Shown here one piece after another: positions 24,566-40,245 of a stretch of 57,229 bases of DNA (the stretch's first letter is position 1; the number at the start of each line of letters is the position of its first letter). Source of the DNA: a virus; the IMG/VR virus record IMGVR_UViG_3300031933_000210, one strand, 5' to 3'. Made by a program: the position numbers and the translations under genes. The notes under the pieces were generated by a model, which worked only from the letters and a program-made list of their open reading frames with translations, did no database searches and was not told the origin of the DNA.

Positions 24566-25843
24566 TTATTTGCCCTCAATGCCATTGGCCGCGCGGAATT
24601 CCTGCATCAGGGTCTGCTGACTGGCCTGTTCGTCGTTACCGCCGCCATCGGCGCCGAGTTCGGGGTTGTTCTGACCCATTGCCTGCTCAAAGGCGCTGCC
24701 CTTGCCACCGGCATTCCCTTCGGCCTTGTCGTCCTCAGCGGGCGATGCAGCCAGAATGCCCTTCGCAGAATCAACCGACAGTTCGGTATTCAACGAAAGG
24801 TGGTTTGCCAGGGCACGACGAGTCTTGGCTTCGTCGCAGCCCATGATCCCCTGAATGCGTTCGCGCTCGGCCGTGGCACCTTCTTTCCGGCCCTCGGCGC
24901 GAGCCGCATCCAGATCAGCCTGTGCGGGTGCAGCGGCTTGTTCCGGTGTGCTCATTGTTTCTTCTCCTGCGGTTGGTGACAGTCCGCCAGAGAAGGCGGC
25001 CAGCGCTTCATCGAAGGCTCGGATTTCGTGCGCGAATCCCAGGCTTACCGCTTCCTCGGCACTGTAGGTCAGCGCTTTGGTGTCACGGACCACCTGCTCA
25101 TCGAGCGCGAGATTCCGCGCCACTGTCGATACGAAAATATTGTAGAGGCCGTCGATCCGGGCCTGCATCCGGTTTTTGGCCACATCGGACAAGGGCTCGT
25201 GTGGATTGCCATCGACCTTGTGCTCACCGGCATGGATGAAGGTGATCTTGATGCCGATCTTCTCGTTCCACCCCGACACATCCATGTGCGCAGTGACCAC
25301 GCCGACGCTACCGACGCCACCGGTACGGGTGATCGTGATCTTGTCAGCGACTGACGCCCAAGCGTATGCAGCCGAATAGGCATGCTCATTGACGAAGGCG
25401 TGGATGGGTTTCTCGCCGCGCATCGCAAAGACACGGTCGACCGCATCGAAGCAGCCGGCTACCTCGCCGCCGCCGGAGCTCAGAATCATGGCGATGCGCT
25501 GAACGCTTCCGTCGGCCATGCCGCGCTCGAACGCCTTCTGGATGTAGACGTAGCCGGTTGCCCAGTCATAAAGCTGGTAGCCGAAGTCGTGCAGCAGCAT
25601 GCCCTTGATCGGGATCAGCAGCGTACCGTCCTGGACGATGTACGGGCGGTAGCGCGCCATCCAACTGTCGGCAGCCGGCCAGAAGTCGTCATAGGCCAGG
25701 GCGACAGGTTCGCTGGAGGCGCGAGCCTCGATCGTCTTCAGCTCAGCGGATACCGAGGCGAGGCAATTGCTCATCCAGTCGGCCTTGCAGTCGCTCACCA
25801 TCACCGGTGCGTTCGCGAAGCGCGAGGCCAGCAGGTTACTCAT
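24566..25843 (-). CDS. S49-family prohead protease / scaffold (lambda gpC-like)
   Basis: SSGGGEVAGCFD...AYSAAYAWASVADKI...GGVGSVGVV matches the SppA/S49 core. Ala/Glu-rich C-terminal scaffold-like region. Confidence 0.85.
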   Translation of the reverse strand: MSNLLASRFANAPVMVSDCKADWMSNCLASVSAELKTIEARASSEPVALAYDDFWPAADSWMARYRPYIVQDGTLLIPIKGMLLHDFGYQLYDWATGYVYIQKAFERGMADGSVQRIAMILSSGGGEVAGCFDAVDRVFAMRGEKPIHAFVNEHAYSAAYAWASVADKITITRTGGVGSVGVVTAHMDVSGWNEKIGIKITFIHAGEHKVDGNPHEPLSDVAKNRMQARIDGLYNIFVSTVARNLALDEQVVRDTKALTYSAEEAVSLGFAHEIRAFDEALAAFSGGLSPTAGEETMSTPEQAAAPAQADLDAARAEGRKEGATAERERIQGIMGCDEAKTRRALANHLSLNTELSVDSAKGILAASPAEDDKAEGNAGGKGSAFEQAMGQNNPELGADGGGNDEQASQQTLMQEFRAANGIEGK

Positions 25844-27509
25844 CGGTCTTTTCCTCTTTGTCTTCGCTGCGTGGTCCGTCGCCCGTATCGCTCGGGGTGC
25901 CGCTGGCGGCGTTCATCTGATTCTTGCTGGACTTGTCCGCGCCGAATTCCAGCTCGTGCTTCTCGGCAGCTTTCTTCTCGCGAGCCAGCTGGTTGAACAC
26001 GACGCGCCAATCTTTGCCGAGCTTGGCCAGCTCATCCTCACGGGTGGACAGGCCGTTGTTCACACGCAGGACCGCAGCCTGGGTTTCCTTCAGCTCATCG
26101 ATCTGCCCGGTGCTGGCGCCGATCCACTCGCAGGAGCTGTAAGCCTCCTGATTAAGCCCCTCGTACCAGTTCGGAGCCTTGCGCGGCAGCGAAGTGATCT
26201 CGCCGGAGTTGATCGCCTCCTCCAGCCACAAGCGGTAGAAGGTGCTGGCGAATCGGTCGGCGACCTGGCGCTTCTGCACTCGCATGCGCTTGCCGGTCTC
26301 AGCCATGGCCGCACGCAGGTTCGAGTAGTTGGCGCTGCTGTAATCCTTCGACAGCTGCTCATAGCTGACCCCAAGGGACGCTGCGATGTAGCGCAGCATC
26401 GACGCCTCGAAGTCGGAACCGACGCCACCGGGCGTGCCGGCGTTCTGCAGCTTCATCTTGGTGCCCGGGTAGAACACCGGCACCTTGACGCCATCGAGGC
26501 GGATGTTGCGCGACCCGCCGACGTACTTGGCCACCTCGCCGAGGTAGGTATTGGCAAAGCCGGTCAGCGCTTGCGGGTCGCCGCCGCCGGCCTGTGCCAG
26601 CGCCACATCACTGGGCAGGTCGGATTCGATGCTGGCCGCATAGCTCGCATTGAGCACCGCCGACTGCAGCACGACATCGCGAAACTTCTTGGTCATCCGC
26701 ATCTCTTTCAGCGCGGAGACCATGCTGGCGACGCCGCGGCTCTGATCCGGGCGCCACTGATCGACGATGTGAATCATTTGCGGGCGGTCCCAGCCGGGAT
26801 TGCCGGTGACCTGACCACGAGTGGCCGGAACGAACTTCCAGCTGTAGCCGTCCGGGTTCATCCAGTCGCTCGGATGTGCCTGGCGAATCCAGTAGCCGAT
26901 GGGTGCACCGAACTTGTCCCGCTGCACGCCGCCGCGCAGGGTTGGGCTGTCCATCTCGCCTTGAGGGTTGCTCAGCCGATCAAGGTCCAGCATCTGCAGC
27001 GCAGTGCGGTACGGACGGTAGCCGTTGCGCATCCATTCAACCGACGCCAGGACCTCGCCGGCCATCGCATGGATGCCAACCGCCAGGCGGACCATCCCGG
27101 TGAGTGTCAACTTGCGGGCTGCGTCCGGGAAATTTCGGATCGACTCGGCGTATAGAGTGAACTTGGCTTCGACCTCCTCCTGAAACTCTTCCGCCCAGAC
27201 CTCATCCAGCCCCAGCACCTTGTAGTTCGGCTTGCTGTTGAGCAGGAACATCTCGCCGACGATGGAATCCTTCTGGATCGTCGCGCCGTTCTGGACATAG
27301 GAGTCGTTGCGCAGGGTGTCGCGCACACGGGAATCCATCACCAGCTTGTCCGGGAGGATGTCCATGTCAGCGGACTGCAGCGGGGACGACCACAACGACA
27401 GCTCACGCGAATGGTGGCTGGACGCATCGTAGGCGCCCCGCGCAGCCATCTCCCTGACCGGCAGCTCACCGATCAGGGGGTCGAGATAATCCATGGCGGA
27501 AAGGTCCAT
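25836..27509 (-). CDS. portal protein (lambda gpB type)
   Basis: 557 aa, between the gpW-like protein and the protease. Confidence 0.8.
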   Translation of the reverse strand: MDLSAMDYLDPLIGELPVREMAARGAYDASSHHSRELSLWSSPLQSADMDILPDKLVMDSRVRDTLRNDSYVQNGATIQKDSIVGEMFLLNSKPNYKVLGLDEVWAEEFQEEVEAKFTLYAESIRNFPDAARKLTLTGMVRLAVGIHAMAGEVLASVEWMRNGYRPYRTALQMLDLDRLSNPQGEMDSPTLRGGVQRDKFGAPIGYWIRQAHPSDWMNPDGYSWKFVPATRGQVTGNPGWDRPQMIHIVDQWRPDQSRGVASMVSALKEMRMTKKFRDVVLQSAVLNASYAASIESDLPSDVALAQAGGGDPQALTGFANTYLGEVAKYVGGSRNIRLDGVKVPVFYPGTKMKLQNAGTPGGVGSDFEASMLRYIAASLGVSYEQLSKDYSSANYSNLRAAMAETGKRMRVQKRQVADRFASTFYRLWLEEAINSGEITSLPRKAPNWYEGLNQEAYSSCEWIGASTGQIDELKETQAAVLRVNNGLSTREDELAKLGKDWRVVFNQLAREKKAAEKHELEFGADKSSKNQMNAASGTPSDTGDGPRSEDKEEKTDE

Positions 27510-27808: not shown

Positions 27809-29923
27809 CTAAGCGAGCAGAGCCGCCAACTCTTCCAGAGTTTGCCCCTTCGGTTCAGCGATCACACCGGCCTTGCGCTCCTCGGGGAAGAAGACCAGGT
27901 CGTTGTCGCCCCACTCTGCAGCCCATCCCGGTGGGTTGTTCCAGTCCAGGTGCTCGATCTTGATCGGGCGATAGAGCGACAGCGCAATGGCGTACACCAG
28001 CAAGTCCCACGCTTCGTTTCGCGGCGACTTCTTCACCCAGCCGTCGGCATTGCGCACCTCGGCCACCATCTCGGCGAACCACCAGTCAGGGAGCCAGTCG
28101 GGCATATTGATCCGTCCGCCGCCGGCACTCGTGCGATCGAGCATAACGTTCAGCTGGTCCTTGAGGGCCAGCGTGTTGATCATCAGCACCGGAATCTCGC
28201 CTCGCGCGCCGGCACTGCGGTCCTTTCGCTCGGAATCCGGATAGCTGATCTGCACCCGCGGTGCGGTCTTGTTGGAGCCGCCCTTGAGCAGCCTGAAGCG
28301 GTTATGCAGCCCTGCCGGGAACTCGCTGCCATCCGAGTCGCGCAGCATCCGCCAGAACAGGTAGGCGTTCTTGGTCGTCGAGCTGTCGTTCTTCTTGTCA
28401 CCCTTACCCGCCGAGTCGCAGCCCACGACCTTGATCGACATGTGCCGGCCGGAGCCATCAGCCAGGGGGTAAGTCTTGAGGATCACCTGGTCGATGAGCA
28501 GCTTCCAGTCCTCGACATAGGACGCAGGCTTCACCCACTCGCGCTCACCGTCCTCGTCCTTGCGATCGGACTTCTTGATAGCGAAGCGGTCGATGACCGT
28601 GATGTCCCCGCCTTCGCTGAAGCCCATGACCTGGACTTCGAAGCGACCACCTTGCACGTCGACAGCGGCCACCAGGAAGCGCACCCCCTCCGGCACCACT
28701 TTCTCGCCGAGATCGCGCGCCATGGCCTTCACGTCTTCCCAAAGGCGCCCCTCGTCCAAACCCTTCGGCCGGAACGGTAGTCCCTGGTCGGTGTTGACCG
28801 TGGTCTTCAGCGCCTCCTGGCTTCCGGTGCGCTCATACTCCTCGTCCGCCTTCAGGTATTTCAGCGCCAGATCGCGCCAGGTAGTGAACGCGGCAGCAGG
28901 CCCTTTCATCCAGAAGCTGGCGATGTCGGAGCGGAAGGGCAAACCTTCGACCCGGTTCTCCCGCGGCACCCATATCTCACCGTCGCGAACCCACCGGGCA
29001 TTACCCTCGGTGATCTGGTTCAACTCGTTCTTGCCGGGCACGCCATCCTTGCCGTCATGCCAGATGATGCCGGCGCAGTGTGGGCACACCATTACGGTCG
29101 CCTCGGCGGCCTCGACGTGATCCTTCGAATCAGGAATGTGCAGCAGCTTGAAATCGGGCTCGAACGGATTCCTGCAGTGAGGGCACTTCCAGTACCAGCG
29201 GCGACGGTCACCACGGTTGTACAGCGCGAGGATACCCTTCGTCGGCGGCGCCTCATGCGGAGTCTTCGGTACCCACTTGGGGTCCTCGATCTCGTAGCCC
29301 GGGCTCGACTCGGCAACGGTCATCGCGTTGCGGCGGAATGTCTGGCCGCGCTTGGCAGTCAGGTCGTAGGCGTTACCTTCCCCGTCGATGGATTCGTCGA
29401 TGCGGTCATAGTCTGAAATCCAGTTGCGGCCCACGGTCTTACCCGAGAGCTCGCTGATGGTCGGCCACTTGACCAGAAGGTGCATGCCTGACAGGAAGCG
29501 GATCGAGTGGGTGGACTGGTTCTGCCGGCCGGGCGCAACTGTCTTGCCCAGCTCCTTCGAATGGCGAAAGGCCCGGCGAAGGTCCTTCTGGCTCCAGTCG
29601 CGAGCGACGTTCTGCGTCATCAGGACGTGCATCATGTCCGCGGGATCGAAGATCGCCGTATGGCACAGCCAGTTGAAGAACATATCAGACTTCCCCGTCC
29701 GGGCCGGGCCGGCGAAGATCATGCCGAGGTATTCCAAGCTGGTCAGCACCTCCATGGGCTCGACCAGATACGGGGCGATGCTGTTGTCCCAGAAGCCGAC
29801 GTAGCTGCCAGGGTTGTTGAGGTAGCGTGACCGCTCGGCCGCCTGGGCGACCGTCAGGCGTTCTGGAGGTCGGATGCCACCGGCAGACGCTGCGATCATC
29901 TGCTCAAGGGATTCGAAGATCAC
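27809..29923 (-). CDS. terL: terminase large subunit (lambda gpA type)
   Basis: 704 aa. P-loop AGPARTGKS. CPHCRNPF...CPHCAG zinc-finger pair typical of the GpA family. Confidence 0.9.
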   Translation of the reverse strand: MIFESLEQMIAASAGGIRPPERLTVAQAAERSRYLNNPGSYVGFWDNSIAPYLVEPMEVLTSLEYLGMIFAGPARTGKSDMFFNWLCHTAIFDPADMMHVLMTQNVARDWSQKDLRRAFRHSKELGKTVAPGRQNQSTHSIRFLSGMHLLVKWPTISELSGKTVGRNWISDYDRIDESIDGEGNAYDLTAKRGQTFRRNAMTVAESSPGYEIEDPKWVPKTPHEAPPTKGILALYNRGDRRRWYWKCPHCRNPFEPDFKLLHIPDSKDHVEAAEATVMVCPHCAGIIWHDGKDGVPGKNELNQITEGNARWVRDGEIWVPRENRVEGLPFRSDIASFWMKGPAAAFTTWRDLALKYLKADEEYERTGSQEALKTTVNTDQGLPFRPKGLDEGRLWEDVKAMARDLGEKVVPEGVRFLVAAVDVQGGRFEVQVMGFSEGGDITVIDRFAIKKSDRKDEDGEREWVKPASYVEDWKLLIDQVILKTYPLADGSGRHMSIKVVGCDSAGKGDKKNDSSTTKNAYLFWRMLRDSDGSEFPAGLHNRFRLLKGGSNKTAPRVQISYPDSERKDRSAGARGEIPVLMINTLALKDQLNVMLDRTSAGGGRINMPDWLPDWWFAEMVAEVRNADGWVKKSPRNEAWDLLVYAIALSLYRPIKIEHLDWNNPPGWAAEWGDNDLVFFPEERKAGVIAEPKGQTLEELAALLA

Positions 29924-30606
29924 TCGGAGGAGCCCTCACTGCCCTCTGGGGCAGCACCCTCTTCCGCGATCGACGGTAGCGTCTTGCCGCTCTTCGGCGC
30001 CTCCACCATCAGGTGGTAGACGTTCTCCAGCAAGCGGTCAGTGAGCTGGGTGATCAGCAGACGCTGTTCAGGCGTCAGGCCCTCGATCCGCTCCACCTCC
30101 TCCACCCAGAGGTTGGCCGTCGTCTTGAACGAGATGGCAAGGTCACCGAACACCTTCAGCACATCCTCGCTGCGCCAGAGATCGCGGGCGTTTTCCTCCC
30201 ACTTCTGCCGCTTGATCATCGCCGACCAGTAGGCATCGTTGAGCATCGGCGGCAGGTCATTCGGGCGCAGCGTCTTGATATACGCGACGAGATCGACTTT
30301 GGGCTTCACCAGATACGCGGCTGCGTCGGGGATGCGGTACAGCGGCCCGCCGTTTCGACGGCCAACGACTTCGCAGCCGGCGCTGGCGAGCTTCTTGGCG
30401 ATGGTGTTCTTGTCGTGACCGAAAACCTGGGCGAGCCAGCTGGCGCTAACGCCGCCGTAGACATCCGCCAGGGCGGTGCTGATCGGTTCCAATGACTCCT
30501 CATCTGCAGCCGGCACCGAGCCAATCAGGTCGTCGTCATCGATCTCGACCGGAGGCTTGGCCTTTGGTGGTCTGCCGCGTCTCTTGGGCGCCGTTTTTGG
30601 GGCCAT
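29920..30606 (-). CDS. terS: terminase small subunit
   Basis: 4-nt overlap with terL. Basic N-terminus (KRRGRPPKAK) and an HTH-like region. Start chosen at MAPKTAP. Confidence 0.65.
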   Translation of the reverse strand: MAPKTAPKRRGRPPKAKPPVEIDDDDLIGSVPAADEESLEPISTALADVYGGVSASWLAQVFGHDKNTIAKKLASAGCEVVGRRNGGPLYRIPDAAAYLVKPKVDLVAYIKTLRPNDLPPMLNDAYWSAMIKRQKWEENARDLWRSEDVLKVFGDLAISFKTTANLWVEEVERIEGLTPEQRLLITQLTDRLLENVYHLMVEAPKSGKTLPSIAEEGAAPEGSEGSSE

Positions 30607-30622
30607 GGTTATCTCCGGAATA

Positions 30623-30639
30623 ATCAACCAACGGTTGAA
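30623..30639. promoter_or_regulatory. TTCAACC-family motif, palindromic form (ATCAACCAACGGTTGAA)
   Basis: Fills the 35-nt gap between the methyltransferase stop and the terS Shine-Dalgarno sequence and ATG. Confidence 0.65.
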
Positions 30640-30641: not shown

Positions 30642-31727
30642 CTAGATCAAAGGATCAAGCTCGATCAGATCAGCTCGTCCAACTCCACGCTCGATGTCGA
30701 GGAACGCGCCGATGAACTGGGTCGCCGCTTCCGCGTTGATCGCGTTTCCGTAGGCGCGCAATCGCACCACTCGGCTGGCAGCCCCATGAGCCAGCGGGAA
30801 TGTGCCGGATTCAACTGGCCGCCACTTTCCGTCCCGGCAGCTGAGCCAGTCAGCATCTCGCCAGATACCGTTAACCGCGCCGGGCCTATCAGTTGCACTT
30901 GGTGTGGCAGGCATGTCACCGAGTTTCCGCAGCTGACCTTCTCCTTCCGTGCTAGCGCCTGATCCGGCGTCCCTCCGGGAGTATTTGCCGTTGGCGTCTG
31001 CCAGCCCACCAACGTGAATGCCTGCTCGCTCAGAGGCTTCCCCCGACTCTGCTCCAGCCTCTGCTCCAGCCTCTGCTCCAGGAACTCCGTGGAGGCGGAT
31101 GCGCTCTTCCAGTCTCGAGCTGAAGGCGTTGCCCAAGAGGCGAACTGAGCAACTGCTGTCAGTTCCGGCTTCGGCGCGCCGTCCTTGCGATACCCCGGTA
31201 AGCCCCGCGAATCCGACGCTGTCGCTGTCGGCCACCCAGAACAATCTGTCACGGATGTGCGGAGCACCGACGCCCGCAGACGGAAACGGGACACCCCCGA
31301 AGGCGTAACCCAGGGCTTCCAGGTCAGCTTGTACAAGGTCGACCCAAGGCTCGACAGCCTTGCCTGCAACCTGCTCTCCAAAGAGGACTGGAGGGCGGCA
31401 CTGCTGGATGAGCCAATGGAAGTCTGGCCATAGGTGCCGCTCGTCAGCAAACCCTTCTTGCGCGCCTGCGCTGCTGAAAGGCTGGCACGGGCAGGAACCG
31501 GTCCAGACTGGACGGGAATCGTCCCAACCAGCTCGTCGTAGGGCGTATGACCAGACACCGATACCGGCGAAGAAGTGACACTGGGTGTAGCCGCGCAGAT
31601 CGTCTGGAGAGACATCGCTGATGCTCCTTTCATCGACATCGCCTGGGGCGATCAGACCTCGGGCGATAAGGTTGCGGAGCCACTGGGCAGCTTGCTTGTC
31701 GATTTCGTTGTAGTAGGCACGCGCCAT
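30642..31727 (-). CDS. DNA (cytosine-5)-methyltransferase
   Basis: FAGIGVWS (motif I-like), PCQPFS (IV), GEQV (VI), APHIRDRLFWV (VIII) and C-terminal LRAYGNAI (X). N-terminal AYYNEIDK...WLRNLI. Start chosen at MARAYYNE. Confidence 0.85.
   Translation of the reverse strand: MARAYYNEIDKQAAQWLRNLIARGLIAPGDVDERSISDVSPDDLRGYTQCHFFAGIGVWSYALRRAGWDDSRPVWTGSCPCQPFSSAGAQEGFADERHLWPDFHWLIQQCRPPVLFGEQVAGKAVEPWVDLVQADLEALGYAFGGVPFPSAGVGAPHIRDRLFWVADSDSVGFAGLTGVSQGRRAEAGTDSSCSVRLLGNAFSSRLEERIRLHGVPGAEAGAEAGAESGEASERAGIHVGGLADANGKYSRRDAGSGASTEGEGQLRKLGDMPATPSATDRPGAVNGIWRDADWLSCRDGKWRPVESGTFPLAHGAASRVVRLRAYGNAINAEAATQFIGAFLDIERGVGRADLIELDPLI
30665..31615 (-). CDS. overprinted +1-frame ORF inside the methyltransferase gene (WxTP-repeat protein)
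   Basis: The frame is open from 31639 to 30665. AAGGAG lies 8 nt upstream of the ATG at 31615. Contains GWPTATASD, SWATPSARDW, GWQTPTANTPGG and LNPAHSRWLMGLPAEW. Has its own ELDELI-TGA end. Confidence 0.5.
   Translation of the reverse strand: MSLQTICAATPSVTSSPVSVSGHTPYDELVGTIPVQSGPVPARASLSAAQARKKGLLTSGTYGQTSIGSSSSAALQSSLESRLQARLSSLGSTLYKLTWKPWVTPSGVSRFRLRASVLRTSVTDCSGWPTATASDSRGLPGYRKDGAPKPELTAVAQFASWATPSARDWKSASASTEFLEQRLEQRLEQSRGKPLSEQAFTLVGWQTPTANTPGGTPDQALARKEKVSCGNSVTCLPHQVQLIGPARLTVSGEMLTGSAAGTESGGQLNPAHSRWLMGLPAEWCDCAPTETRSTRKRRPSSSARSSTSSVELDELI
31047..31081. repeat. 12-bp tandem repeat (CTCTGCTCCAGC, about 2.9 copies)
   Basis: Read directly from the sequence. Gives GAEAGAEAGAE in the methyltransferase frame and RLEQRLEQ in the +1 frame. 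Confidence 0.9.
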
Positions 31728-31803: not shown

Positions 31804-32352
31804 TCAGATCACGACACGGGCGCGGACCCAGCCGTAGAGGAATGTCCTCTGGTCAGAGTCGTGCTCGGTGAGTTCGAGGTACCGGTTGCCCTGGGTACAG
31901 TTGAGGGCACGAAGCAGGACCCCCTCGCCTTCCCGGCCACGCTTCGCGAGGAAACGATCGAGCGCGTTGAGGCTGATATCGCCAATGCGGCCATCCACGA
32001 ACAGGTCGTCATAACCGCTGCCCGGTAAATTGAAGCCATTCAACCAGCGCTGCAGGAACTCAGCGGCTCGGTGCGGCCCCATGTTCACTCCGGTGTCGAC
32101 CAGTTCCTCGCCGATGAGCGTGGAGCGCAGCAGCACCTTATCGAACCTGGGCTCGACGACGAAGCGGTTGCGGTAGATGTGCTCGGCCAGGGTTCGCGGC
32201 ATGTCGCGCATGTCACCCTGGTAGCCGTTGGCGCGGGCGACGGCACGGGTGATCCCGTACATCGTCTCACCGCCGCGGTCGGACTTGTGATTCGAATACC
32301 GGCCCTCTGCGTCGATGACCGCTGCGATGATGTTGTCGATCTGCTTGCTCAT
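31804..32352 (-). CDS. endolysin, GH108-type muramidase with a PG_binding_3-like C-terminus
   Basis: IDAEGRYSNHKSDRGGETMYGIT matches the EGGY.nhp.D.GG.T..GIT signature of GH108. Start chosen at MSKQID. Confidence 0.8.
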   Translation of the reverse strand: MSKQIDNIIAAVIDAEGRYSNHKSDRGGETMYGITRAVARANGYQGDMRDMPRTLAEHIYRNRFVVEPRFDKVLLRSTLIGEELVDTGVNMGPHRAAEFLQRWLNGFNLPGSGYDDLFVDGRIGDISLNALDRFLAKRGREGEGVLLRALNCTQGNRYLELTEHDSDQRTFLYGWVRARVVI

Positions 32353-32364
32353 GGCGCCACTCAC

Positions 32365-32380
32365 GGTTGAATACTCAACC
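32365..32380. promoter_or_regulatory. TTCAACC-family motif, half-sites in everted order (GGTTGAATACTCAACC)
   Basis: Lies 13 nt upstream of the endolysin ATG on the minus strand. Confidence 0.55.
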
Positions 32381-32423
32381 AACCGTACTTGTGGCCGCGG
32401 AACCTGTCGACGCGATATTCGAC

Positions 32424-33077
32424 TCAGTGCTTGTCGGTGACCAGCTTCCAGCGATCCTCGCCCGTATAGTAGTGCGTGCCCGACTCCTTCACTTCAACGG
32501 CCAGGTAGCCGCCACGGCGCACGCCGTGTTTCTCGATGAGATCGTGAGGCATGTGAATGAAGCGTATGTCGAACGGACCTTTCGGGATTGCACCGATCAC
32601 AGCGCAACGCTCGTATTCGTTGGGAATATAGAAGCGTAACAGGCCAGCCTCCACTGTTTGCGCGGTCGCAACATGGTAATAGGTCTGGGTACCCTCGCGG
32701 ATGCTGTGAAAACTGACGAACTCAGCCAGGGGATCACCCTCGGCTGGGAAGGCGCAGGTGCCGCCATTGAGCTGCACAAGTCCCATGAAAACGTTAACTG
32801 CACCGGCCATCTGGGCGCTGTGCTGCTTACGCTCTTTCACTTCCATGTTGGGCGTGATGCCCAGCGCCAACCACGATTCGTCAACACCGAGAACCTTGGC
32901 GAGCTTACCCATCATGCTGGGGCGCGGACGCGAACCTGCGAACCACTTGCGCACGGCCTCGGCGCTCACACCCATCTCATCCTTGAGCCATGTCTGGCGG
33001 CCTTTGCCGAATGTCGGAACTCGACTGTTGCCGTCGCATGCCACCTTCAGCCGGTTGGCGAATCCTAAATCGGCCAT
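32424..33077 (-). CDS. XRE/CI-like repressor (HTH N-domain, non-peptidase C-domain)
   Basis: N-terminus FANRLKVA...MGVSAEAVRKWFAGSRPRPSMMGKLAKVLGVDESWLALG is a classic HTH_3 domain. No S24 Ser-Lys signature is seen in the C-terminal 130 aa. Confidence 0.7.
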   Translation of the reverse strand: MADLGFANRLKVACDGNSRVPTFGKGRQTWLKDEMGVSAEAVRKWFAGSRPRPSMMGKLAKVLGVDESWLALGITPNMEVKERKQHSAQMAGAVNVFMGLVQLNGGTCAFPAEGDPLAEFVSFHSIREGTQTYYHVATAQTVEAGLLRFYIPNEYERCAVIGAIPKGPFDIRFIHMPHDLIEKHGVRRGGYLAVEVKESGTHYYTGEDRWKLVTDKH

Positions 33078-33153
33078 GGTTTTCCCCCTCCTTCGGGTTT
33101 ATCGACAGCGTGTCGGCCACACGCGCGGTAGCACTCGGTGGCCGAAACCGCTA

Positions 33154-33233
33154 TTCAACTATCTGTTGACTTGATGTTGAACTATCCAACAACGGTGTCA
33201 ATTCTTTTTTGCGTAAATTGACAAACATTCAAC
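33154..33233. promoter_or_regulatory. operator/promoter region upstream of the repressor gene
   Basis: Cluster of TTCAAC/GTTGAA half-sites (33154, 33165, 33176, 33185, 33228) plus an 8-bp inverted repeat TGTCAATT-N12-AATTGACA (33196-33223). Confidence 0.55.
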
Positions 33234-33258
33234 AGAAAGGGGGATATTGACCGCCAGG

Positions 33259-34728
33259 TCACACTACCTCCCTGTACTTCGTCGCCTCGACGAGCGCGTC
33301 TTGGAGTGCATCTTTTTCAGGCAGAACGGTCATTACCCGCTCATCGACCGTACCCTCGGCAACGATATGGTGAATTACAACCGTTTCCTTCTGGCCTGGA
33401 CGGTGAAGACGCTTATTCAACTGTTGGTAGTATTCGAGACTCCAGCAGAGGCCGTACCAGACGGTGATGCAACCACCGTACTGCAGGTTCAATCCGTGAC
33501 CAGCGGACTGCGGGTGCGCCAGCAGGATGGAAATTTCGCCGTTGTTCCAGCGCTTCTGCAGGTTCGGCGCCTCGCCGACGACCTCAGCCTTCGGGTAGCG
33601 CTTGCGCAGCTTCTCCAGGTCGAACTGGTAGCTGTAGGCGACCAGAACCGGCGCCCCGTTGGCCTCCTCGATCACGCTGTCCAGGGCATCGAGCTTCAGT
33701 GAGTGGATTTCGATGACGTTGCCGTCCTCGTCGTAGACCGAGCCGTTGGCCAGCTGCAGCAACTTGCCGGTCAGCACACCCTCGTTCACCGCCTCGATGT
33801 CATGCTCTTCGAGCAGCATGGTCTTCTCGAACTTGCGGTACTGGGCCATCACCTTCGGTGGCAGCTTCACACGGATCGTGTTGTGGATGACCGGCGGCAT
33901 GTCGACGTAATCCTCCGTCTTCATGCTCAGGGTGATGTCCTGAATGCGCTCGACGATCTGCTCAAACGCACCCGGCCGCGGTGTATAGCGGTAGCCCATG
34001 TAGTCGCTATCGAACCAGCGAGTGCGGTACTGGTTGAAGCTGCCATACAGTCGCTCGCCCTGATCCAGCAGATAGAACTGGCTCCAGATGTCCAACAGGC
34101 CGTTGGGCGACATGGTTCCGGTGAGCCCGATGACACGCAGGATGCGCTTGCGCACGCTGCACAGCGCCCCGAACCGGGTCGGATTACCCTTCACCTTCTT
34201 GACCGCCTTCTTGACCGCGGCGTCAATCTGCTCGTCCGTCAGCCCTTTCGGCAGCTCGCGCATCGCTTCGTCCATGGCTTTCTGAACCGCCACCTTGGTT
34301 GGCTTGGTCTTCTTCGACGGATTCTTGAAACGCGAGATTTCGTCGATGCACACCAAGTCGTAGGGCCAGTCATCTCCCCAGAATTCGACCAGCCAGCCGA
34401 CGTTCTCGGTGTTGATAATGCTGATCTCGGGCAGCCTACGGGCGCGCTGCTCACGCCGGTCAGGTGGACCGGTCAACACCTCGTAGTCGAGCACGCTGGT
34501 GTGCTCCCACGCATCGATCTCATCGGGCCAGGTCTCCTCGGCCACCAGCAGCGGCGCGATCACCAGGATGTGGGTGACCTGGAAGGTGTCCAGCAGCTCG
34601 CGGAACGCTGTCAGCGCTGTGCCGGTTTTCCCCAGCCCCATCGCCATCCCCAGCATGCACGCAGGGTTCTCGACGATCTTCTTCACGCCCACCAGCTGGC
34701 TGTGCCGCAGGTCATCGAGCTTACGCAT
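33259..34728 (-). CDS. SNF2-family DNA helicase/translocase
   Basis: GLGKTG (Walker A), CIDEISRFKN (DExx box) and LLAHPQSAGHGLNLQ (helicase-C motif). Confidence 0.85.
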   Translation of the reverse strand: MRKLDDLRHSQLVGVKKIVENPACMLGMAMGLGKTGTALTAFRELLDTFQVTHILVIAPLLVAEETWPDEIDAWEHTSVLDYEVLTGPPDRREQRARRLPEISIINTENVGWLVEFWGDDWPYDLVCIDEISRFKNPSKKTKPTKVAVQKAMDEAMRELPKGLTDEQIDAAVKKAVKKVKGNPTRFGALCSVRKRILRVIGLTGTMSPNGLLDIWSQFYLLDQGERLYGSFNQYRTRWFDSDYMGYRYTPRPGAFEQIVERIQDITLSMKTEDYVDMPPVIHNTIRVKLPPKVMAQYRKFEKTMLLEEHDIEAVNEGVLTGKLLQLANGSVYDEDGNVIEIHSLKLDALDSVIEEANGAPVLVAYSYQFDLEKLRKRYPKAEVVGEAPNLQKRWNNGEISILLAHPQSAGHGLNLQYGGCITVWYGLCWSLEYYQQLNKRLHRPGQKETVVIHHIVAEGTVDERVMTVLPEKDALQDALVEATKYREVV

Positions 34729-34996
34729 AGGGAACCCCCAGAATACGCAGAGCGGCTGTCGGCACGTCTACGACATGCACCTCGGCGCCGGCCGCACGGA
34801 ACAGGTCGATCTCACGCTGCTGAGTGGCCCGCGGCTTGCCGTCCGGACGCTTGAATTCAATCAGCACGATGCGCCCCTCTTTCAGGAAGAAGCGGTCCAT
34901 GCCGTTGCGCCGGCCGATCCAGCGCAGCTTCCGGACGATCCAGCCGGCAGCTTCGGCTCTCTCGCATACCAAGTCCTCAATTGGGCTCTCGATCAT
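34721..34996 (-). CDS. VRR-NUC domain nuclease
   Basis: GMDRFFLKEGRIVLIEFKRPDGKPRATQ fits the D..(D/E)xK core of VRR-NUC. The ATG at 34996 follows the TTCAACCA motif. Confidence 0.7.
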   Translation of the reverse strand: MIESPIEDLVCERAEAAGWIVRKLRWIGRRNGMDRFFLKEGRIVLIEFKRPDGKPRATQQREIDLFRAAGAEVHVVDVPTAALRILGVPYA

Positions 34997-34997
34997 T

Positions 34998-35023
34998 GGT
35001 TGAATACTCACTAGGTGGTTGAA
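34998..35023 (-). promoter_or_regulatory. TTCAACC-family motif, 19-bp-phased direct repeat abutting the start codon
   Basis: Minus strand reads TTCAACCAcctagtgagtaTTCAACCAATG. Confidence 0.65.
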
Positions 35024-35030
35024 AACGCAG

Positions 35031-37016
35031 TCAAATCAGATGGTCCAGCTTTGCGTCCCACTGGTAGGCTGGATGGCCAACGTCGCGCATGATCGAGACG
35101 GCCTCGCGCGCATACCAGCTCAGGTCCACGTCAGTGGGGAACTCCTCGGGTAGGTCCATCAGCGGCACTGCGCCGCGAGACCGGGAAACGGTGTTGCTGT
35201 TGATCTTGTAGCGGATGTCCCGGGTCTCGCCGATGCCGTAGTACCAGCGCACGGCCTTGCCGAGGTACCGCGCGTTCTTCAGCTGTGCCTGGGTGACGTG
35301 CTTGTAGGCTTCGTCTCGGCTGAGCGCCAGCGTGTAATCCTCGTTGGTCCAGGTCCCCGGCTCCGGCCACTCGAACCAGCCCTCGCGCTCCAAGACAGCC
35401 TTCTTCTCGGCGACCTTGGCCTTGGGGTCGAACTCGCAGTGCCCATATACCGCCCCGCCGTTGACCTGGCGCACCGTCACGAACTTGGTGATGTCCTTGC
35501 AGGCCGCCAGCGTGGCCTCCACCGGCACACCCTTGGTCAGTGCGTCGACTGCTGCCTGGATCGCGATCTGGTTGGCGGGGTTCTTCTGCAGACCGGGTTC
35601 GGCGAAGGCGCCCTTGAGCTTGACCTTGCCGTCGGTCTTCACAGCGATGTAGTTGTTCACGTCGCGGCTGTAGAGCGCGCTGTACTGCGTTTCCTCGGTC
35701 TCGAACGTGGTGCGGCGCTCCCATTCGGCGACGATTGCGTTCAGGTCGTCCAGATGATCCTTCGGGCACTTGATCACTACGCCGTCGGTGTTGGCGCTGA
35801 CCACGGAGATGCCGGCCCCCTCGATCATCTCGATGAGCATCAGCAACGCCAGCTGGCCGGTGATCGTTACCTGGATCATCAGGTGCGGCGAATACAGGCA
35901 CGACCACTTGGAGCCGAACTTGCCGAACGATCCGTTGATGGTGATCTTCAGCGAGTCGGCGGTGACCTTGTCGCCAGCACGCTTGGCTGCCAGGCGCCGG
36001 TCGACGATCGACTTGTAGACCTTGAGAAAGGCGGGTCCGAGGTGCTTGGGGTACAGGCCCTGACCGAGGATGATCGCCGGGTAGTAGCTGGCCACGTCGC
36101 GGTCGATCAGAAGGGTGTCGTCGTCGGCGATATGGGTGACCGAGCTTTCGCTGGAGTGCAGCCCGCCGATCCCCATGCGGTAGATCGAGCCACCCATCAC
36201 GACCTTTGCATCAGAGAGCTCATCAGGCATCGCCACGCTGCCGTTGCTCTCGACGACGAACTTCGCGTTGCGCACCATCTCCAACACTTCGAGCATCACG
36301 GGCGTGGTGTAGCTGATGAAATCCGGTACCCGATAATTGAAGCTGGTGCCGGCCGGGAACTTCGGCCGCTCAGGGCGCACACCGCTCAGCCGCTCCAGCT
36401 GACTCTTGATCACCGCCTCGGCAATCTGGGCATCGGACTTGGAGCGCAGGTCCATGCCGTACTCTTCGGACATCCGCTCACGCAGCTCCAGCTGTTTGAT
36501 CAGCCCGGTGCGCAGGTCTTTGGTGGCGTTCAGGTCGTTGCCGTTGTAGGAGACCAGCTGCGGGCGAAGCTCGGGGGTGATCGAGGCGTCAGGCTCCACC
36601 GGCAGGTCCTGCATGCGCTGGGTATGGACCCGGCCGCCGTAGATTTTTAGGCTGGCCTGCCCGGGCGCCACCTCGATCAGGTCGATGTGGTCGATCTTGG
36701 GGATGCGGACGCCGAAGGTGCGCTCGAACTCCCAAGGCTTGAGGTTCTGCTGGATGATTGCATCGCTGGCGCGCTTGAGCTGGATGTTGCTCACCCCCTG
36801 CAGCGCGTAGTAGACCATCGGGATATCGTAGGTCGCCCCGTTGAACGTGATGATCTGGCAGAGCCGGAGCACCTTGGCGAGCAGTTCGCGATCGAGGCTC
36901 ACCCCATCGTACTGCTCAAACACGAGCGTGTTGCCCGTCTCGATGTTGCGCACGCCGACTTCGAAATAGTCCCTATACGTCTCCACATCGAGTACCACTG
37001 TTTTTTTAGTATTCAT
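35031..37016 (-). CDS. family-B DNA polymerase with an N-terminal 3'-5' exonuclease
   Basis: VLDVETY (Exo I), DVASYYPAII (motif A), KITINGSFGKFG (motif B) and SANTDGV (motif C). Confidence 0.8.
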   Translation of the reverse strand: MNTKKTVVLDVETYRDYFEVGVRNIETGNTLVFEQYDGVSLDRELLAKVLRLCQIITFNGATYDIPMVYYALQGVSNIQLKRASDAIIQQNLKPWEFERTFGVRIPKIDHIDLIEVAPGQASLKIYGGRVHTQRMQDLPVEPDASITPELRPQLVSYNGNDLNATKDLRTGLIKQLELRERMSEEYGMDLRSKSDAQIAEAVIKSQLERLSGVRPERPKFPAGTSFNYRVPDFISYTTPVMLEVLEMVRNAKFVVESNGSVAMPDELSDAKVVMGGSIYRMGIGGLHSSESSVTHIADDDTLLIDRDVASYYPAIILGQGLYPKHLGPAFLKVYKSIVDRRLAAKRAGDKVTADSLKITINGSFGKFGSKWSCLYSPHLMIQVTITGQLALLMLIEMIEGAGISVVSANTDGVVIKCPKDHLDDLNAIVAEWERRTTFETEETQYSALYSRDVNNYIAVKTDGKVKLKGAFAEPGLQKNPANQIAIQAAVDALTKGVPVEATLAACKDITKFVTVRQVNGGAVYGHCEFDPKAKVAEKKAVLEREGWFEWPEPGTWTNEDYTLALSRDEAYKHVTQAQLKNARYLGKAVRWYYGIGETRDIRYKINSNTVSRSRGAVPLMDLPEEFPTDVDLSWYAREAVSIMRDVGHPAYQWDAKLDHLI

Positions 37017-37557
37017 GCGATGAACCAACACCATTATTCGAGAATTCGCGATGGAGACGAAGCCTCGCAGCTTTAACCGCGTTCTCAGCATTCAACTTGT
37101 CCGCGAAATAACCTAAATTCCGGTTCCGCCCGTTTACGCAAATAATCGCCATCCACTTCCCGTAACGCTTGTACCACTGGACACCTTTAACTCCTGAGGT
37201 GTTATCGGAGCGGAGTAAGGCGTTTCTGGCGTTTTCAGCCAGGGTGGCCAGTCTCATGTTGCTAGGCTGGTTATTGAGTTTGTTACCGTCTATATGATCG
37301 ATCCGGTAGCCATAAGGGATCGACCCGTTGCGCATAATCCAAAGCAGGCGATGAACTAGCCAACGCTCCTTCTTGAAACCCACCTGGAGATAGCCTTGTG
37401 TATTCTGGCAAGTCACTTCTCCAATCGCGCGCCCCCCTAGACCCGGCAGCCAGCGAACGGTGTGCCCTACATCCTCAAACGCAGCCAGTAGTTCACAGCG
37501 GCTCGGCTCAGTACGCATAGTCATGGCCGGCATACCCTCTAGCTTCTTCACTTTCAT
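37006..37557 (-). CDS. HNH (HNH_3) + AP2-domain homing endonuclease
   Basis: VHRLLW...IDHIDGNKLNNQPSNMRL...N plus SGVKGVQWYKRYGKWMAIICVNGRNRNLGYF. Lower GC than its flanks. Overlaps the polymerase start by 11 nt. Confidence 0.8.
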   Translation of the reverse strand: MKVKKLEGMPAMTMRTEPSRCELLAAFEDVGHTVRWLPGLGGRAIGEVTCQNTQGYLQVGFKKERWLVHRLLWIMRNGSIPYGYRIDHIDGNKLNNQPSNMRLATLAENARNALLRSDNTSGVKGVQWYKRYGKWMAIICVNGRNRNLGYFADKLNAENAVKAARLRLHREFSNNGVGSSHEY

Positions 37558-37558
37558 T

Positions 37559-37584
37559 GGTTGAATACTCACCCATTGGTGGAA
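37559..37584 (-). promoter_or_regulatory. TTCAACC-family motif, 19-bp-phased direct repeat abutting the start codon
   Basis: Minus strand reads TTCCACCAatgggtgagtaTTCAACCAATG. Confidence 0.6.
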
Positions 37585-37609
37585 AAAAAGGGCGCCGAAG
37601 CGCCCTTTC
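37582..37609 (-). terminator. Rho-independent terminator after the SSB-like gene
   Basis: Stem AAAGGGCGC/GCGCCCTTT, loop of 4 nt, T7 tract on the minus strand. Confidence 0.75.
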
Positions 37610-37622
37610 TGCGGGGTTTGAC

Positions 37623-38219
37623 TCAGATCATGTCGTCGTCTTCGTCGTCCAGATCGTCGAGGTAGTCGTCGGCATCGACAGCGCCGGCGCCGAACGGCTC
37701 ACCGTCGCGACGGAAGCGCACCAGCTCGATGGACGCGAACACACCGTTGCCACCCTTGTCCTTGTCGGTGACCGAGTAGACGCTGACAACAGCATCCACA
37801 TAGCAGCCGCCGTAGATAATGCCGTCTTCCTCGACGGTCGGGCTCTTGTCGCGCTTGAGGACCTGCGGCCGGCGCTTTTCCGGCGAGCTGGCCTGGACGT
37901 ACATCATGTCCTCGTAGCCCGCGTAGACATCACCCTCGGCATTGGTAGCCTTGTTACCGTCGCGCAGCGGCTTACGGTCCCACTCGATGTTGTTGAAGAT
38001 TTTCTCAGCCTTGTCCGCCCAGGTCTTGCCCTTGACGTGCTCGATGGCAGCGTTGATGGCTTTGATGTTCGCCTTGCCCTCGGCAGTCTCCGGATCGATC
38101 AGGAATGCAGCGCTGAACTTGGGCGCCGAGGTGTCGGTGGACTTCTCGGCCTTGAACAGTTTCGGGAAGGACAGGCGGACGTTTTTCAGTACGGCGATAT
38201 CGGGACGTGCAGTTGCCAT
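37623..38219 (-). CDS. ssDNA-binding protein, T7 gp2.5-like (DUF2815-like)
   Basis: Position between the exonuclease and the polymerase. Family resemblance is from memory. Strongly acidic tail DDYLDDLDDEDDDMI. Confidence 0.6.
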   Translation of the reverse strand: MATARPDIAVLKNVRLSFPKLFKAEKSTDTSAPKFSAAFLIDPETAEGKANIKAINAAIEHVKGKTWADKAEKIFNNIEWDRKPLRDGNKATNAEGDVYAGYEDMMYVQASSPEKRRPQVLKRDKSPTVEEDGIIYGGCYVDAVVSVYSVTDKDKGGNGVFASIELVRFRRDGEPFGAGAVDADDYLDDLDDEDDDMI

Positions 38220-38234
38220 GTTGTGTTTCCTCGG

Positions 38235-39512
38235 TCAGATCAGATCGTCGAATTCATCGACTTCAGGTTGAATCTCGTCAGCAGCGACCAGGTCGTCATC
38301 GTCGTCCAGATCGTCCAGCAGGCTGAGGATTGGGATCAGCGCCTCGCGCTTGTCGCTTTCCGGTACCAGTGCCGGCTTGCCTTCCGGCCGATGGATTAAC
38401 TCCTGGGCAGCCTTCCAGTTGCGCGTACCGGCGGCCGACTCCATCTGTGCTGGGCTTTTCAGCCGCTGCGTGTAGATGGCCTTGGCTGGCATCTTGGCCT
38501 TCCAGAACTCTTCCGCCTCAGCTTCGTTGACCCAGGTGCGATCACCGAGCGTGGCGACAGCCTTGAACCCAGGAACAGGCAACCCTTTGAGCGCATCGTC
38601 CAGCGCCGCGGCATGCAGGTTGTTGACCCAGCTGGTGATCAGCGACTTGTGCTCCAGCACGTAGCTGCGGCGCTCAGGGGTGAGGCTCGCGTGTGCAGTC
38701 AATTCAGGTTTCCTCCTGCGGTCGGCGTCCAGGCTCTCTAGGTCGATACCCAGCAAGTCGAGGACGAATTGATCCAGCGCGTAGCAGGCCGAGTTGCGTG
38801 CTGCCCGGCAGAATCGGCACCCTTTCGGGCTCGGTTTAAGTGGCGCATCCGGGTCCAGCGTGGCGATTGCCGCAGCAGCGACCTCCTCGGCGAACACCAA
38901 AAGCTCGTCGAGCGTGGTGTACCACTCACTGCCTCCACCGGAGACACGCGGTTGGTCGATGCGCAACAGGAAGCGTGTGGCCTTCGTTCGGTGTCTGGCG
39001 TAGTTCATCCAGAAACCGAGCGCGTAGATCATCATCTGCTTGTTGCGCTCAGCATCTACGGTCACACCGCGGCCGAATTTCAGGTCGTCGATGGTGATCA
39101 GGTCGTCAGAGATGCCGCCGGCATCCAGCGTCCCGAAGCCACCTTCGATCCACGGGTCCATCTCGACCCGGTGTTCAAAGACCCATTCAGCTTTCGCCTC
39201 GCGGATGCGGTCGATACCAGGCTGCAGCCAGCGCACCCACTCGTCAGTCACCTCGAAGAACAGCCCATCGGCCTCGATCTTCTCGCCAACCAGAGCGTCG
39301 ACATCGATTCCTTCATTCAGGCAACGCTCGCGCACGGTGTGTGCTGCGGTACCTTCGCTGGAGAACTCACTACTCTCCTCGGGGAAGCGCTCTTCCATCC
39401 GCGGCTTGCCCGGACAGACCATCCACCCTTCGGCATCCGATGGGCTCAGCCGGTGATGCGCGGCGATGGCAGCTGCGATCGGGGTGCGATCTATTGGTTG
39501 GTGTGCAGTCAC
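38235..39512 (-). CDS. PD-(D/E)XK / Cas4-like exonuclease (DUF2800-like)
   Basis: HHRLSPSDAEGWMVCPG N-terminal signature, IDDLKFGRG, and a C-terminal CRFCRA...C cluster. GTG at 39512 with a GGAGAGGG Shine-Dalgarno sequence (alternative ATG at 39629). Tail EFDDLI. Confidence 0.65.
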   Translation of the reverse strand: MTAHQPIDRTPIAAAIAAHHRLSPSDAEGWMVCPGKPRMEERFPEESSEFSSEGTAAHTVRERCLNEGIDVDALVGEKIEADGLFFEVTDEWVRWLQPGIDRIREAKAEWVFEHRVEMDPWIEGGFGTLDAGGISDDLITIDDLKFGRGVTVDAERNKQMMIYALGFWMNYARHRTKATRFLLRIDQPRVSGGGSEWYTTLDELLVFAEEVAAAAIATLDPDAPLKPSPKGCRFCRAARNSACYALDQFVLDLLGIDLESLDADRRRKPELTAHASLTPERRSYVLEHKSLITSWVNNLHAAALDDALKGLPVPGFKAVATLGDRTWVNEAEAEEFWKAKMPAKAIYTQRLKSPAQMESAAGTRNWKAAQELIHRPEGKPALVPESDKREALIPILSLLDDLDDDDDLVAADEIQPEVDEFDDLI

Positions 39513-39558
39513 CTTGCCCTCTCCAAAGGGAGGCCCGAAGGCCCCCTCACCGGTTGGT

Positions 39559-40245
39559 TCAGACCAGGTCGTCTTCAGCTTGAGCGCAGACTTCAGCGAA
39601 ATCGGCGCTGGTCGGATCAATGTCTTCACCGGCCATCTTGCGCTCGACCAGATTCATGGCCAGCGCGCGGTGCTCGGGCAGCAGCTCGCTTGCACGGGCG
39701 GCGCCGAAACGCTCCAGCAACGGCTTGACGAACTTGGCGCGCTCGGCGCGGGTTTCCTTGTCCAGGTCCTTCGGCAGGTAGCGTGCGAAGACCTCGACGA
39801 GCGCTTCGACCGGCGGATGCTCGGCACCCTTCTTCTCGGTGGTCGACTCGGCACCCTTCTTGGCGTCAGCTTCCTTCTTGGCCTTGGCGTCAGCCGCCTT
39901 CTTGGCCTTGGCATCAGCCGCGTTCTTTTCCTTCAGCGCCGCCTGCTTCTCGTTGTAGATGCTCTCGGTGATCTTGTAGACGCCGTCGGCTTCGGCCTTC
40001 TTGGCAGCGTATTCGGCCTCGTTGGCCACCTTGCCGAAGTAACCGGTGCTGTTGTCGGCCCAGAAGATCGGGCCGGATTCGGCTTTCGACTCGGCGGTCT
40101 TACCAGCGTCGGTGACGGCGGCAGCAGCAGACTTACCCACTTCCTGGGCTGCGGCTGTCGTAGCGCCGCTGGCAAAGCGGATCGCTTCGGAAAGACCGTT
40201 GATGGCGTTCGCGAACTTGTCGCTGATGTCGAGGGTTACCTGCAT
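39559..40245 (-). CDS. hypothetical protein, Ala/Lys-rich with an AADAKAKK repeat
   Basis: AGGAG lies 9 nt upstream of the ATG at 40245. 24-bp tandem duplication at 39874-39921. First gene of the leftward replication operon. Confidence 0.6.
   Translation of the reverse strand: MQVTLDISDKFANAINGLSEAIRFASGATTAAAQEVGKSAAAAVTDAGKTAESKAESGPIFWADNSTGYFGKVANEAEYAAKKAEADGVYKITESIYNEKQAALKEKNAADAKAKKAADAKAKKEADAKKGAESTTEKKGAEHPPVEALVEVFARYLPKDLDKETRAERAKFVKPLLERFGAARASELLPEHRALAMNLVERKMAGEDIDPTSADFAEVCAQAEDDLV

Follow-up and report, generated by a model that had tools for sequence, protein, structure and literature searches.

The window analysed here, a stretch of viral DNA of 57,229 nucleotides (nt; IMG/VR record IMGVR_UViG_3300031933_000210), carries a cytosine C5-methyltransferase (C5-MTase) gene in which a second long open reading frame (ORF) is nested out of frame; all features described below lie on the minus strand unless stated otherwise. 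The outer ORF, which we call alpha (frame A, 30642..31727), encodes 361 amino acids (aa) from an ATG at 31727 to a TAG at 30642, in a frame that is open from 31775. The inner ORF, beta (frame B, +1 relative to alpha, 30665..31615), encodes 316 aa from an ATG at 31615 to a TGA stop, lies entirely within alpha and overlaps about 88% of it. A preliminary description of the window, made from the sequence alone, had reported that the +1 frame stays free of stops over 324 codons (31639->30665), roughly 90% of the length of frame A, and our translation of the locus confirmed this.

Alpha carries the landmarks of a C5-MTase, FAGIG, PCQPFS, GEQV, APHIRDRLFWV and RLRAYGNAI, each of them where the preliminary description had placed it, with FAGIG (31557-31571) as motif I (FxGxG, S-adenosylmethionine binding) and PCQPFS as motif IV (PCQ). 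The Pfam profile PF00145 matched alpha with E=1.4e-12, limited to residues 92-182, and a profile of the alpha family aligned with M.HhaI residues 74-175 (E=4e-13), pairing PCQPFS (31473..31490), which holds the catalytic Cys, with M.HhaI PCQAFS, and motif VI GEQV and motif VIII HIRDR with HhaI ENV and QKRER. Towards the end of the chain, RLRAYGNAI (30738..30764) is invariant in 121 sequences (invariant columns R322, L323, R324, Y326, G327, N328 and A329); we assign it to motif X, the GNxV-type helix closing the large domain, from its pattern and the AlphaFold2 (AF2) model rather than from a significant alignment. In that model, the predicted local distance difference test (pLDDT) score was ~90 at residues 1-170 and in the helix at 320-348, and below 50 at residues 171-320. 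Foldseek searches with alpha returned M.HhaI, M.HaeIII, DNMT1 and Dnmt2 at probability 1.0 over ~170-195 columns, a span which means that only the large domain of alpha is matched. Single-chain C5-methyltransferases consist of a large domain, with motifs I-VIII plus X, together with a small domain, with the variable region and motif IX (PMC3404938). No small domain, that is a target-recognition domain (TRD) plus motif IX, was found within the alpha chain, in which residues 171-320 are modelled at pLDDT below 50 and the middle evolves with a ratio of non-synonymous to synonymous differences (pN/pS) of 1.46. As modelled, alpha shows no foldable small domain.

Two further features of alpha were observed. 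A motif II/III-like segment (31611-31718, residues 4-39; AYYNEID..AAQWLRNLI..GDVDERSI, compare HhaI YSNEWDKYAQEVYEMNF..GDI) precedes motif I in the family to which the window belongs, motifs I and IV standing ~20 residues apart, and relatives in Firmicute and Bacteroides phages have the canonical motif order; judged by this order, the alpha large domain appears permuted at its N-terminus. The degeneration of frame A to low complexity that had been noted earlier, GAEAGAEAGAESG, proved to be a perfect 12-nt x 2.9 tandem repeat (31047..31081), which reads as GAEA repeats in alpha and as LEQR repeats (LEQRLEQRLEQ) in beta and leaves both frames open. This repeat looks like a recent, window-specific expansion inside the family consensus R.EQ.RGKPLSEQ.

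Beta had been credited with three W-x-T-P copies. Two of these are exact, SWATPSARDW (31109..31138) and GWQTPTAN (30983..31006), and the first, GWPTATASD (31211..31237), turned out to be a degenerate version of the family consensus GWPTPTA.D; across 266 homologues, the number of such modules per protein varies from 1 to 6. More than 6000 database homologues of beta were found in a 90%-identity collection, none with a Pfam domain and among them the exact 316-aa window protein (P0001). At 50% identity the family forms 11,266 clusters (E<=1e-3), or 2,209 at E<=1e-30, and the best 150 clusters represent proteins that stand alone, 224-466 aa long, in most of which the alignment begins at the first residues. 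PHROGs likewise holds separate families for the two frames, phrog_363 for frame A and phrog_1008 and phrog_31772 for frame B, each labelled DNA methyltransferase. The best-predicted part of beta is a helix and hairpin at residues 70-120 (pLDDT ~80 in AF2), which lies inside a segment coding in both frames. We also observed Pfam matches to HNH endonucleases in 2 of 120 frame-B family proteins (best E=2.8e-4), recalling the out-of-frame ShiLan HNH insertions of mycobacteriophage methylases (PMC11855218).

The start of beta is marked by signals embedded in frame-A codons. Its ATG (31613..31615) spans a frame-A Asp-Val pair (GAT GTC), and 8 nt before it stands the Shine-Dalgarno (SD) sequence AAGGAG (31624..31629), formed by the frame-A codons GAA-AGG-AGC, as the preliminary description had it; AGG, presumed there to be rare, accounts for 6.6% of the Arg codons counted in 39 long window ORFs. 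Further in-frame ATGs are found at 31633 and 31639. The Asp codon that forms the start is GAT in 58 of 64 loci, as against 175 of 406 (43%) at other Asp codons, and relatives often have a second ATG (GAT GAC) 12 nt downstream. At the Arg codon of the SD sequence, 16 of 64 loci use AGG, as compared to 0 of 274 for the Arg codons elsewhere; for CGG the counts are 10 of 64 and 14 of 274, respectively. Either codon gives the GGAG core, and one or the other is present in 26 of 64 loci as compared to 14 of 274 (5%) elsewhere. An SD sequence for the inner ORF is present in N15, K1ind3, Cy-LDV1 and Diva, and most database homologues of beta align their own residues 1-14 with query residues 1-14. These codon choices show that the beta start codon is conserved, and we infer that beta is translated from internal initiation.

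We then compared 84 related loci frame by frame, from a set comprising 80 IMG/VR loci plus phage loci. Frame B was open over ~90% of alpha in all 84, which answers the earlier proposal to check the +1 frame in homologues, and frame A was unbroken from YYNE to GNAI in every locus except that of phage PMG1. The +1 frame opens at A-codon 0-52, or at 90 in a single locus whose N-terminus is extended, and runs to about the end of the gene; the third (+2) frame contains 8-28 stops per locus, with 15 in the window. Chance was assessed with a conservative null model in which synonymous codons were permuted within each region. For the window, the probability of an open frame, P(open), was ~0.04 for frame B over A codons 38-161 and ~0.05 for frame A over the middle of the gene. 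Frame A had 0 stops in its middle in 59 of 59 loci (2.3 expected per locus; mean P(open) 0.11), frame B had a single stop over A codons 38-161 in the 59 loci together (1.1 expected per locus; mean P(open) 0.28), and the control frame matched the null, with 4.9 stops observed per locus versus 4.6 expected.

The window has a GC content of 61%, but the nested ORF also occurs in phages of 47-49% GC, where P(open), taken at the stop density of the other frame, was 4.6e-7 for Paenibacillus Diva (+1 ORF of 236 codons), 2e-7 for Lactobacillus Lc-Nu (184 codons), 1.5e-11 for Bacteroides BS-TP4 (379 codons) and 3.8e-4 for Bacillus yong1 (161 codons). GC-richness is therefore not the cause of the open second frame. 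The nested ORF was likewise found in cyanophage Cy-LDV1, N15 and Rhodobacter RcKeef, and the pairing occurs with both canonical and permuted alpha subunits, across phyla.

Codon alignments of 64 non-identical loci were used to compare selection in frames A, B and C, frame C serving as the unread control, with codons numbered from the A of AYYNE and pN/pS left uncorrected. Along the gene, four segments could be distinguished. The first (31518..31727), which holds the alpha N-terminus and motif I, is constrained in frame A only: over A codons 0-67 variability at the third position (A3) was 0.46-0.55 and identity in frame B equalled that in the control frame, and over codons 38-67 pN/pS was 0.19 in A, 1.82 in B and 1.53 in C, the beta N-terminus being S/T/P-rich and unconstrained. 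The second (31224..31517) is dual-coding, with alpha motifs IV, VI and VIII read in one frame and beta ARASLS..TSGT and the helix/hairpin STLYKLTWKPWVTPSGVSRFRLRAS in the other; over codons 67-165, A3 variability went down to 0.23-0.30 and variability at the first position (A1, equivalent to B3) went up to 0.22-0.25, and over codons 97-165 pN/pS was 0.44-0.61 in A, 0.67-0.74 in B and 1.1-1.6 in C. The third (30867..31223) is constrained in frame B only, and comprises the W-x-T-P modules of beta and, in alpha, a disordered linker that is kept open. Over its codons (165-284) variability peaked at A1 (B3), at 0.41 versus 0.21-0.23, identity was 0.705 in B, 0.515 in A and 0.511 in C, and pN/pS was 0.44 in B versus 1.46 in A and 1.49 in C. 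The fourth (30723..30866) is again dual-coding, with WRDADW..VESGTFPLAHG..RLRAYGNAI in alpha and ARLTVSGEMLTGS..LNPAHSRWLMGLPAEW..RKRR in beta; over codons 284-312 variability was 0.09-0.15 at all three positions (pN/pS 0.62 in A, 0.44 in B and 1.11 in C), and over codons 312-332, mostly frame A, A3 variability was 0.24-0.25 and pN/pS was 0.21, 0.76 and 3.19 in A, B and C, respectively.

The suppression of synonymous variation that the preliminary description had proposed to look for was thus found: variability at frame-A synonymous sites halves where frame B is conserved, and A3 returns to 0.58 past the beta stop, where only frame A is read. These alignments show both frames to be open and under purifying selection in a regional pattern. 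By the same measures the alpha middle evolves like a non-coding frame yet acquires no stop, as expected of a linker that must stay open because motif X lies beyond it. Over the ~100 codons shared with alpha motifs IV-VIII, frame B is itself constrained, so both frames must be translated there. Together with the size of its family, its own PHROG families and its conserved start codon, this purifying selection bears out the earlier suggestion that frame B is an evolutionarily real module, and on this comparative evidence we regard it as a real, conserved protein-coding frame.

A motif-IX-like element of beta, LNPAHSRWLMGLPAEW (30767..30814), is nearly invariant in 120 homologues. The only hhalign match of the beta profile to M.HhaI (the sequence used being identical to 10mh_A) covered residues 274-291 (LHPRECARVMGYPDSY), marginally at E=0.59, and paired beta LNPAHSRWLMGLPAEWCD with LHPRECARVMGYPDSYKV at motif IX of HhaI. 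The same element aligned, again marginally (E=0.029), with residues 402-424 of Gordonia phage Gudmit gp58, RLSAAFAEWMMMLPAGW; this stretch lies just upstream of motif X, LKAIGNGV, in the same chain, and it is the only beta-profile alignment there. The beta element thus falls at the right place for motif IX, with a statistical support that is marginal. The Gudmit gp58 locus (L091, 984-2369) was observed to have a hybrid layout, in which a +1 ORF encodes the first half of what resembles the small domain (LLPTP modules), and the catalytic frame holds further LPTP modules, a motif-IX-like AFAEWMMMLPAGW and motif X. The locus also has a Cys-rich insertion, CGHCSH..CGICYC.

Taken together, these data make it likely, in our judgement, that the locus is a nested gene pair for two subunits of one C5-cytosine DNA methyltransferase, a reading which follows from an alpha chain made of a large domain and a free linker, from a beta chain read over that very interval, and from the precedent of M.EcoHK31I. 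We propose that alpha, starting at ATG 31727, would provide the large catalytic domain (residues 1-170, with motifs I, IV, VI and VIII), followed by ~120 codons of disordered linker, free in sequence but barred from acquiring stops, and by a conserved C-terminal block and a motif X helix that would fold back onto the large domain. Beta would start within alpha at ATG 31615, behind AAGGAG, and its parts, an unconstrained S/T/P-rich N-terminus, a conserved helix and hairpin read over alpha motifs VI-VIII, three W-x-T-P modules and LNPAHSRWLMGLPAEW, appear between them to provide all of the small (target-recognition) domain that a single-chain enzyme has. Alpha and beta would then assemble in trans as an orphan phage methyltransferase protecting the phage DNA. 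On this view of the sequence, beta is probably the DNA-recognition half, or specificity subunit, and by analogy the two chains would form a heterodimer.

Several observations weigh against this interpretation. The motif IX assignment combines a pattern with the two marginal hhalign matches (E of 0.59 and 0.029), and beta had no match in Pfam or NCBIfam searches and no significant match to solved structures in sequence and profile searches of the PDB. Modelled alone in AF2, beta was of low confidence (pLDDT 62; predicted template modelling score, pTM, 0.28), and Foldseek with this low-confidence model gave meaningless matches only. No fold is predicted for the conserved alpha block at residues 289-320. 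Many relatives, the D3-like Pseudomonas phages among them, lack a recognisable SD sequence. The loci compared are phylogenetically related, and the middle of the gene was aligned through frame B, which favours identity in that frame, although the codon-position pattern is not created thereby.

Frame B might instead be translated for a purpose unrelated to methylation, as a regulator or an anti-defence factor for instance, with alpha active alone. The lack of significant similarity between beta and known C5-MTase small domains would fit such a role, and the alpha block at 289-320 could then serve as a minimal motif IX or recognition element. We nevertheless consider this unlikely, as the VIII-X interval of alpha is non-coding-like and predicted to be disordered, which would leave the enzyme with no target-recognition domain, and as beta is placed exactly at the small-domain position, with LNP..WLMG.P..W aligned, marginally, to motif IX. 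The pairing is also maintained across phyla, with canonical and permuted alpha alike, and M.EcoHK31I provides a functional precedent for a nested subunit.

The preliminary description had left a choice between overprinting and a +1 frameshift isoform, and our data favour overprinting. A programmed +1 ribosomal frameshift, perhaps followed by a shift back, would produce a single-chain enzyme or a second isoform without independent initiation in frame B, and a reading path leading from A (motifs I-VIII) to B (modules and motif IX) and back to A (motif X) would restore the canonical motif order; in Gudmit gp58, a single frame carries the later half of the small domain together with motifs IX and X. 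Such a product would be expected to show constraint only downstream of the slip site and no start of its own, and we found frame B to be constrained over motifs IV-VIII, its ATG conserved (58 of 64 loci, through synonymous codon choice) and its SD sequence partly so. The ~100 codons of alpha motifs IV-VIII are selected in both frames, motifs VI and VIII would be absent from any fusion whose shift lay upstream of these codons, and frame A stays open throughout its middle in 59 of 59 loci, where a shifted product would not need it. We noticed no slippery heptamer when reading through both junctions, although no systematic search was made. We judge a frameshift to be decidedly improbable, and a simple frameshift isoform was rejected on the dual constraint, the open middle of frame A and the conserved beta ATG.

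That frame B is a chance shadow ORF might be supposed from the 61% GC of the window, since stops are rarer in alternative frames of GC-rich genes. This is very hard to reconcile with the 15 stops in the other alternative frame of the same gene, with the persistence of the +1 ORF at 47-49% GC, with a pN/pS of 0.44 in B where A has 1.46, and with the enrichment of start-codon and SD choices at synonymous sites; the comparative data contradict it and we rejected it, in agreement with the preliminary description, which had found frame B unlike a GC-rich shadow ORF. It is scarcely credible that one ordinary gene was split into two seeming frames by a frameshift from assembly or sequencing, or by decay into a pseudogene, and this was also rejected: the 4-nt insertion in PMG1 (below) indicates that such errors or mutations occur, but both frames of the window are complete end to end, and the two-frame layout recurs in >80 independent contigs and finished phage genomes.

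Both chains of the nested pair finish in a similar peptide. Beta ends in ELDELI (30668..30685) and alpha in ELDPLI (30645..30662), each directly before its stop, so that the two [LF]D.LI ends lie 23 nt apart. In the six-frame translation of the window this motif occurs 7 times, 5 of them immediately before a stop. It was seen on the DNA polymerase (35031-37091; AKLDHLI) and the exonuclease (38235-39629; EFDDLI), as had been claimed of a tail class common to both frames and these proteins, and also on a 93-aa ORF of the plus strand (45428-45709; DLDELI). The gp2.5-like single-stranded DNA-binding protein (37623-38219) ends in DDEDDDMI and a 255-aa ORF (39559-40326) in AEDDLV. Near their N-termini, a 557-aa ORF (25836-27509) has an LDPLI-like peptide (MDLSAMDYLDPLIGE) and the small terminase (29920-30627) has EIDDDDLIG, hence LDPLI-like and DDDDLI-like peptides are not confined to C-termini.

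The closest relatives, two IMG/VR contigs (L005 and L006) whose methyltransferase is 64-69% identical to that of the window, keep both the alpha and the beta tail (beta ..FDELI in L005 and ..LDELI in L006); family members other than these two were without tails. The conserved alpha GRADLI is the other-frame reading of beta LDELI-stop. The residues before the beta tail diverge among the window, L005 and L006, and the retention of the tails despite this divergence constitutes independent evidence of selection on the beta C-terminus in this clade. To us [LF]D.LI looks like a shared C-terminal docking peptide, and its distribution suggests, by inference only, that the tails on both chains would dock them on the replication machinery in this phage clade. 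T7 gp2.5 and gp4 carry acidic C-terminal tails. Like them, several replication proteins of the window share a short docking-type peptide at the C-terminus, but the T7 tails are an acidic run ending in Phe, in place of [LF]D.LI, and the window motif is carried also by the polymerase itself and by both methyltransferase chains.

In public annotation, the pair usually appears as a single gene, although thousands of phages keep the arrangement; gene callers retain one frame only. GenBank annotates frame A in BcepC6B (gp33) and PVN06, and frame B in PMG1 (PMG1_00057) and vB_E354 (vB_E354_00047); all-frame translation showed both frames open in BcepC6B, PVN06 and vB_E354. In PMG1 (L002, 1579-1610) an extra GATC near DERSIEDV, CGATCGATCGATCGAGG versus CGATCGATCGAGG in L007 and L013, breaks frame A and accounts for the annotation of frame B alone in this phage; the insertion may be an error of sequencing or else a genuine inactivation. 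On the contig from which the window comes (L094), the public gene prediction keeps frame B only (316 aa) and drops the catalytic alpha. Existing annotations of the inner ORF include "g49 internal gene" (DIVA_50), "Mte8-like protein" (K1ind3 ORF29) and, in RefSeq, "DNA methyltransferase (x2)"; the origin of the name "Mte8" was not found in papers or in a homologue search with K1ind3 ORF29. Thousands of alpha homologues are named "DNA cytosine methyltransferase", and the exact alpha of the window was absent from a collection of 5.8 billion proteins, where the best identity was 69%. A megablast search of window positions 32000-52000 (20 kb) against 50,697 GenBank phage genomes gave no related record.

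Members of the family with this nested layout include N15 gp58, epsilon15, BcepC6B gp33, the K1-ind phages and Paenibacillus larvae phages, and the pair, with ~950 nt read in two frames, was found in phages of Proteobacteria, Firmicutes, Bacteroidetes and Cyanobacteria. Our literature searches brought up no paper that presents the nested pair as a feature general to phage methyltransferases; what they gave was scattered annotations and the HNH case of ShiLan. In the papers found, heterodimeric C5-methyltransferases are treated as two curiosities, M.AquI and M.EcoHK31I (PMC3404938). The sequence comparisons point to nesting of beta in alpha as the usual condition in a very large family of phages and prophages, far larger than these papers suggest. 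As a natural example of long dual coding the family is unusually clean, with a readable selection map of A only, both, B only and both. Should target recognition reside in beta, alpha by itself would not suffice to predict or engineer the specificity of these orphan methyltransferases. More tentatively, the pair might rank among the longest, oldest and most widespread same-strand overprinted pairs in prokaryotic viruses, its alpha linker being a recognition domain read in the wrong frame, its beta chain exchangeable and possibly multispecific, and its LDxLI tails tethering the enzyme to the replisome for methylation during copying; we consider this wider picture possible, with more doubt than confidence.

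The kind of system to which the locus would belong is already known from M.EcoHK31I, of which the window is a variant. In this two-polypeptide C5-methyltransferase of E. coli HK31, which recognises YGGCCR, beta lies entirely inside alpha in another frame (PMC2836561). Activity requires both alpha and beta, silent removal of the internal starts of beta abolished it, several of these starts can be used, and the N-terminus of beta is dispensable (PMC2836561; PMC3404938). Compared by description, the window has the same layout, with beta nested out of frame in alpha, and its alpha likewise carries motifs I, IV, VI, VIII and X. In M.EcoHK31I, however, the TRD is assigned to alpha, whereas in the window the VIII-X interval is constrained only in frame B and the W-x-T-P modules belong to beta. 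The window beta, at 316 aa, also overlaps the catalytic motifs of alpha, giving a longer overlap, both window chains carry the LDxLI tail, and no cognate restriction enzyme is adjacent, the neighbouring genes coding for an endolysin (GH108) and for the two terminase subunits, small and large.

In M.AquI, a natural heterodimeric C5-MTase split in the variable region (PMC3404938), the functions of the enzyme are divided over two polypeptides, as we propose for the window; its smaller subunit, which follows the larger, carries motifs IX and X, unlike the window, where alpha keeps motif X, contiguous with the catalytic domain, and beta lies nested in another frame. Relative to the single-chain methyltransferases M.HhaI and M.HaeIII, the alpha large domain is alike in sequence and fold, but the small domain is not in the alpha chain, and motif I comes after the motif II/III-like AYYNEID..DERSI. 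ShiLan offers another out-of-frame ORF hidden in phage methylase genes, an HNH endonuclease inside mycobacteriophage DNA methylases whose host frame stays open (PMC11855218). That ORF is a mobile homing insertion of patchy distribution, whereas the second frame of the window is core to its enzyme family and vertically conserved within it.

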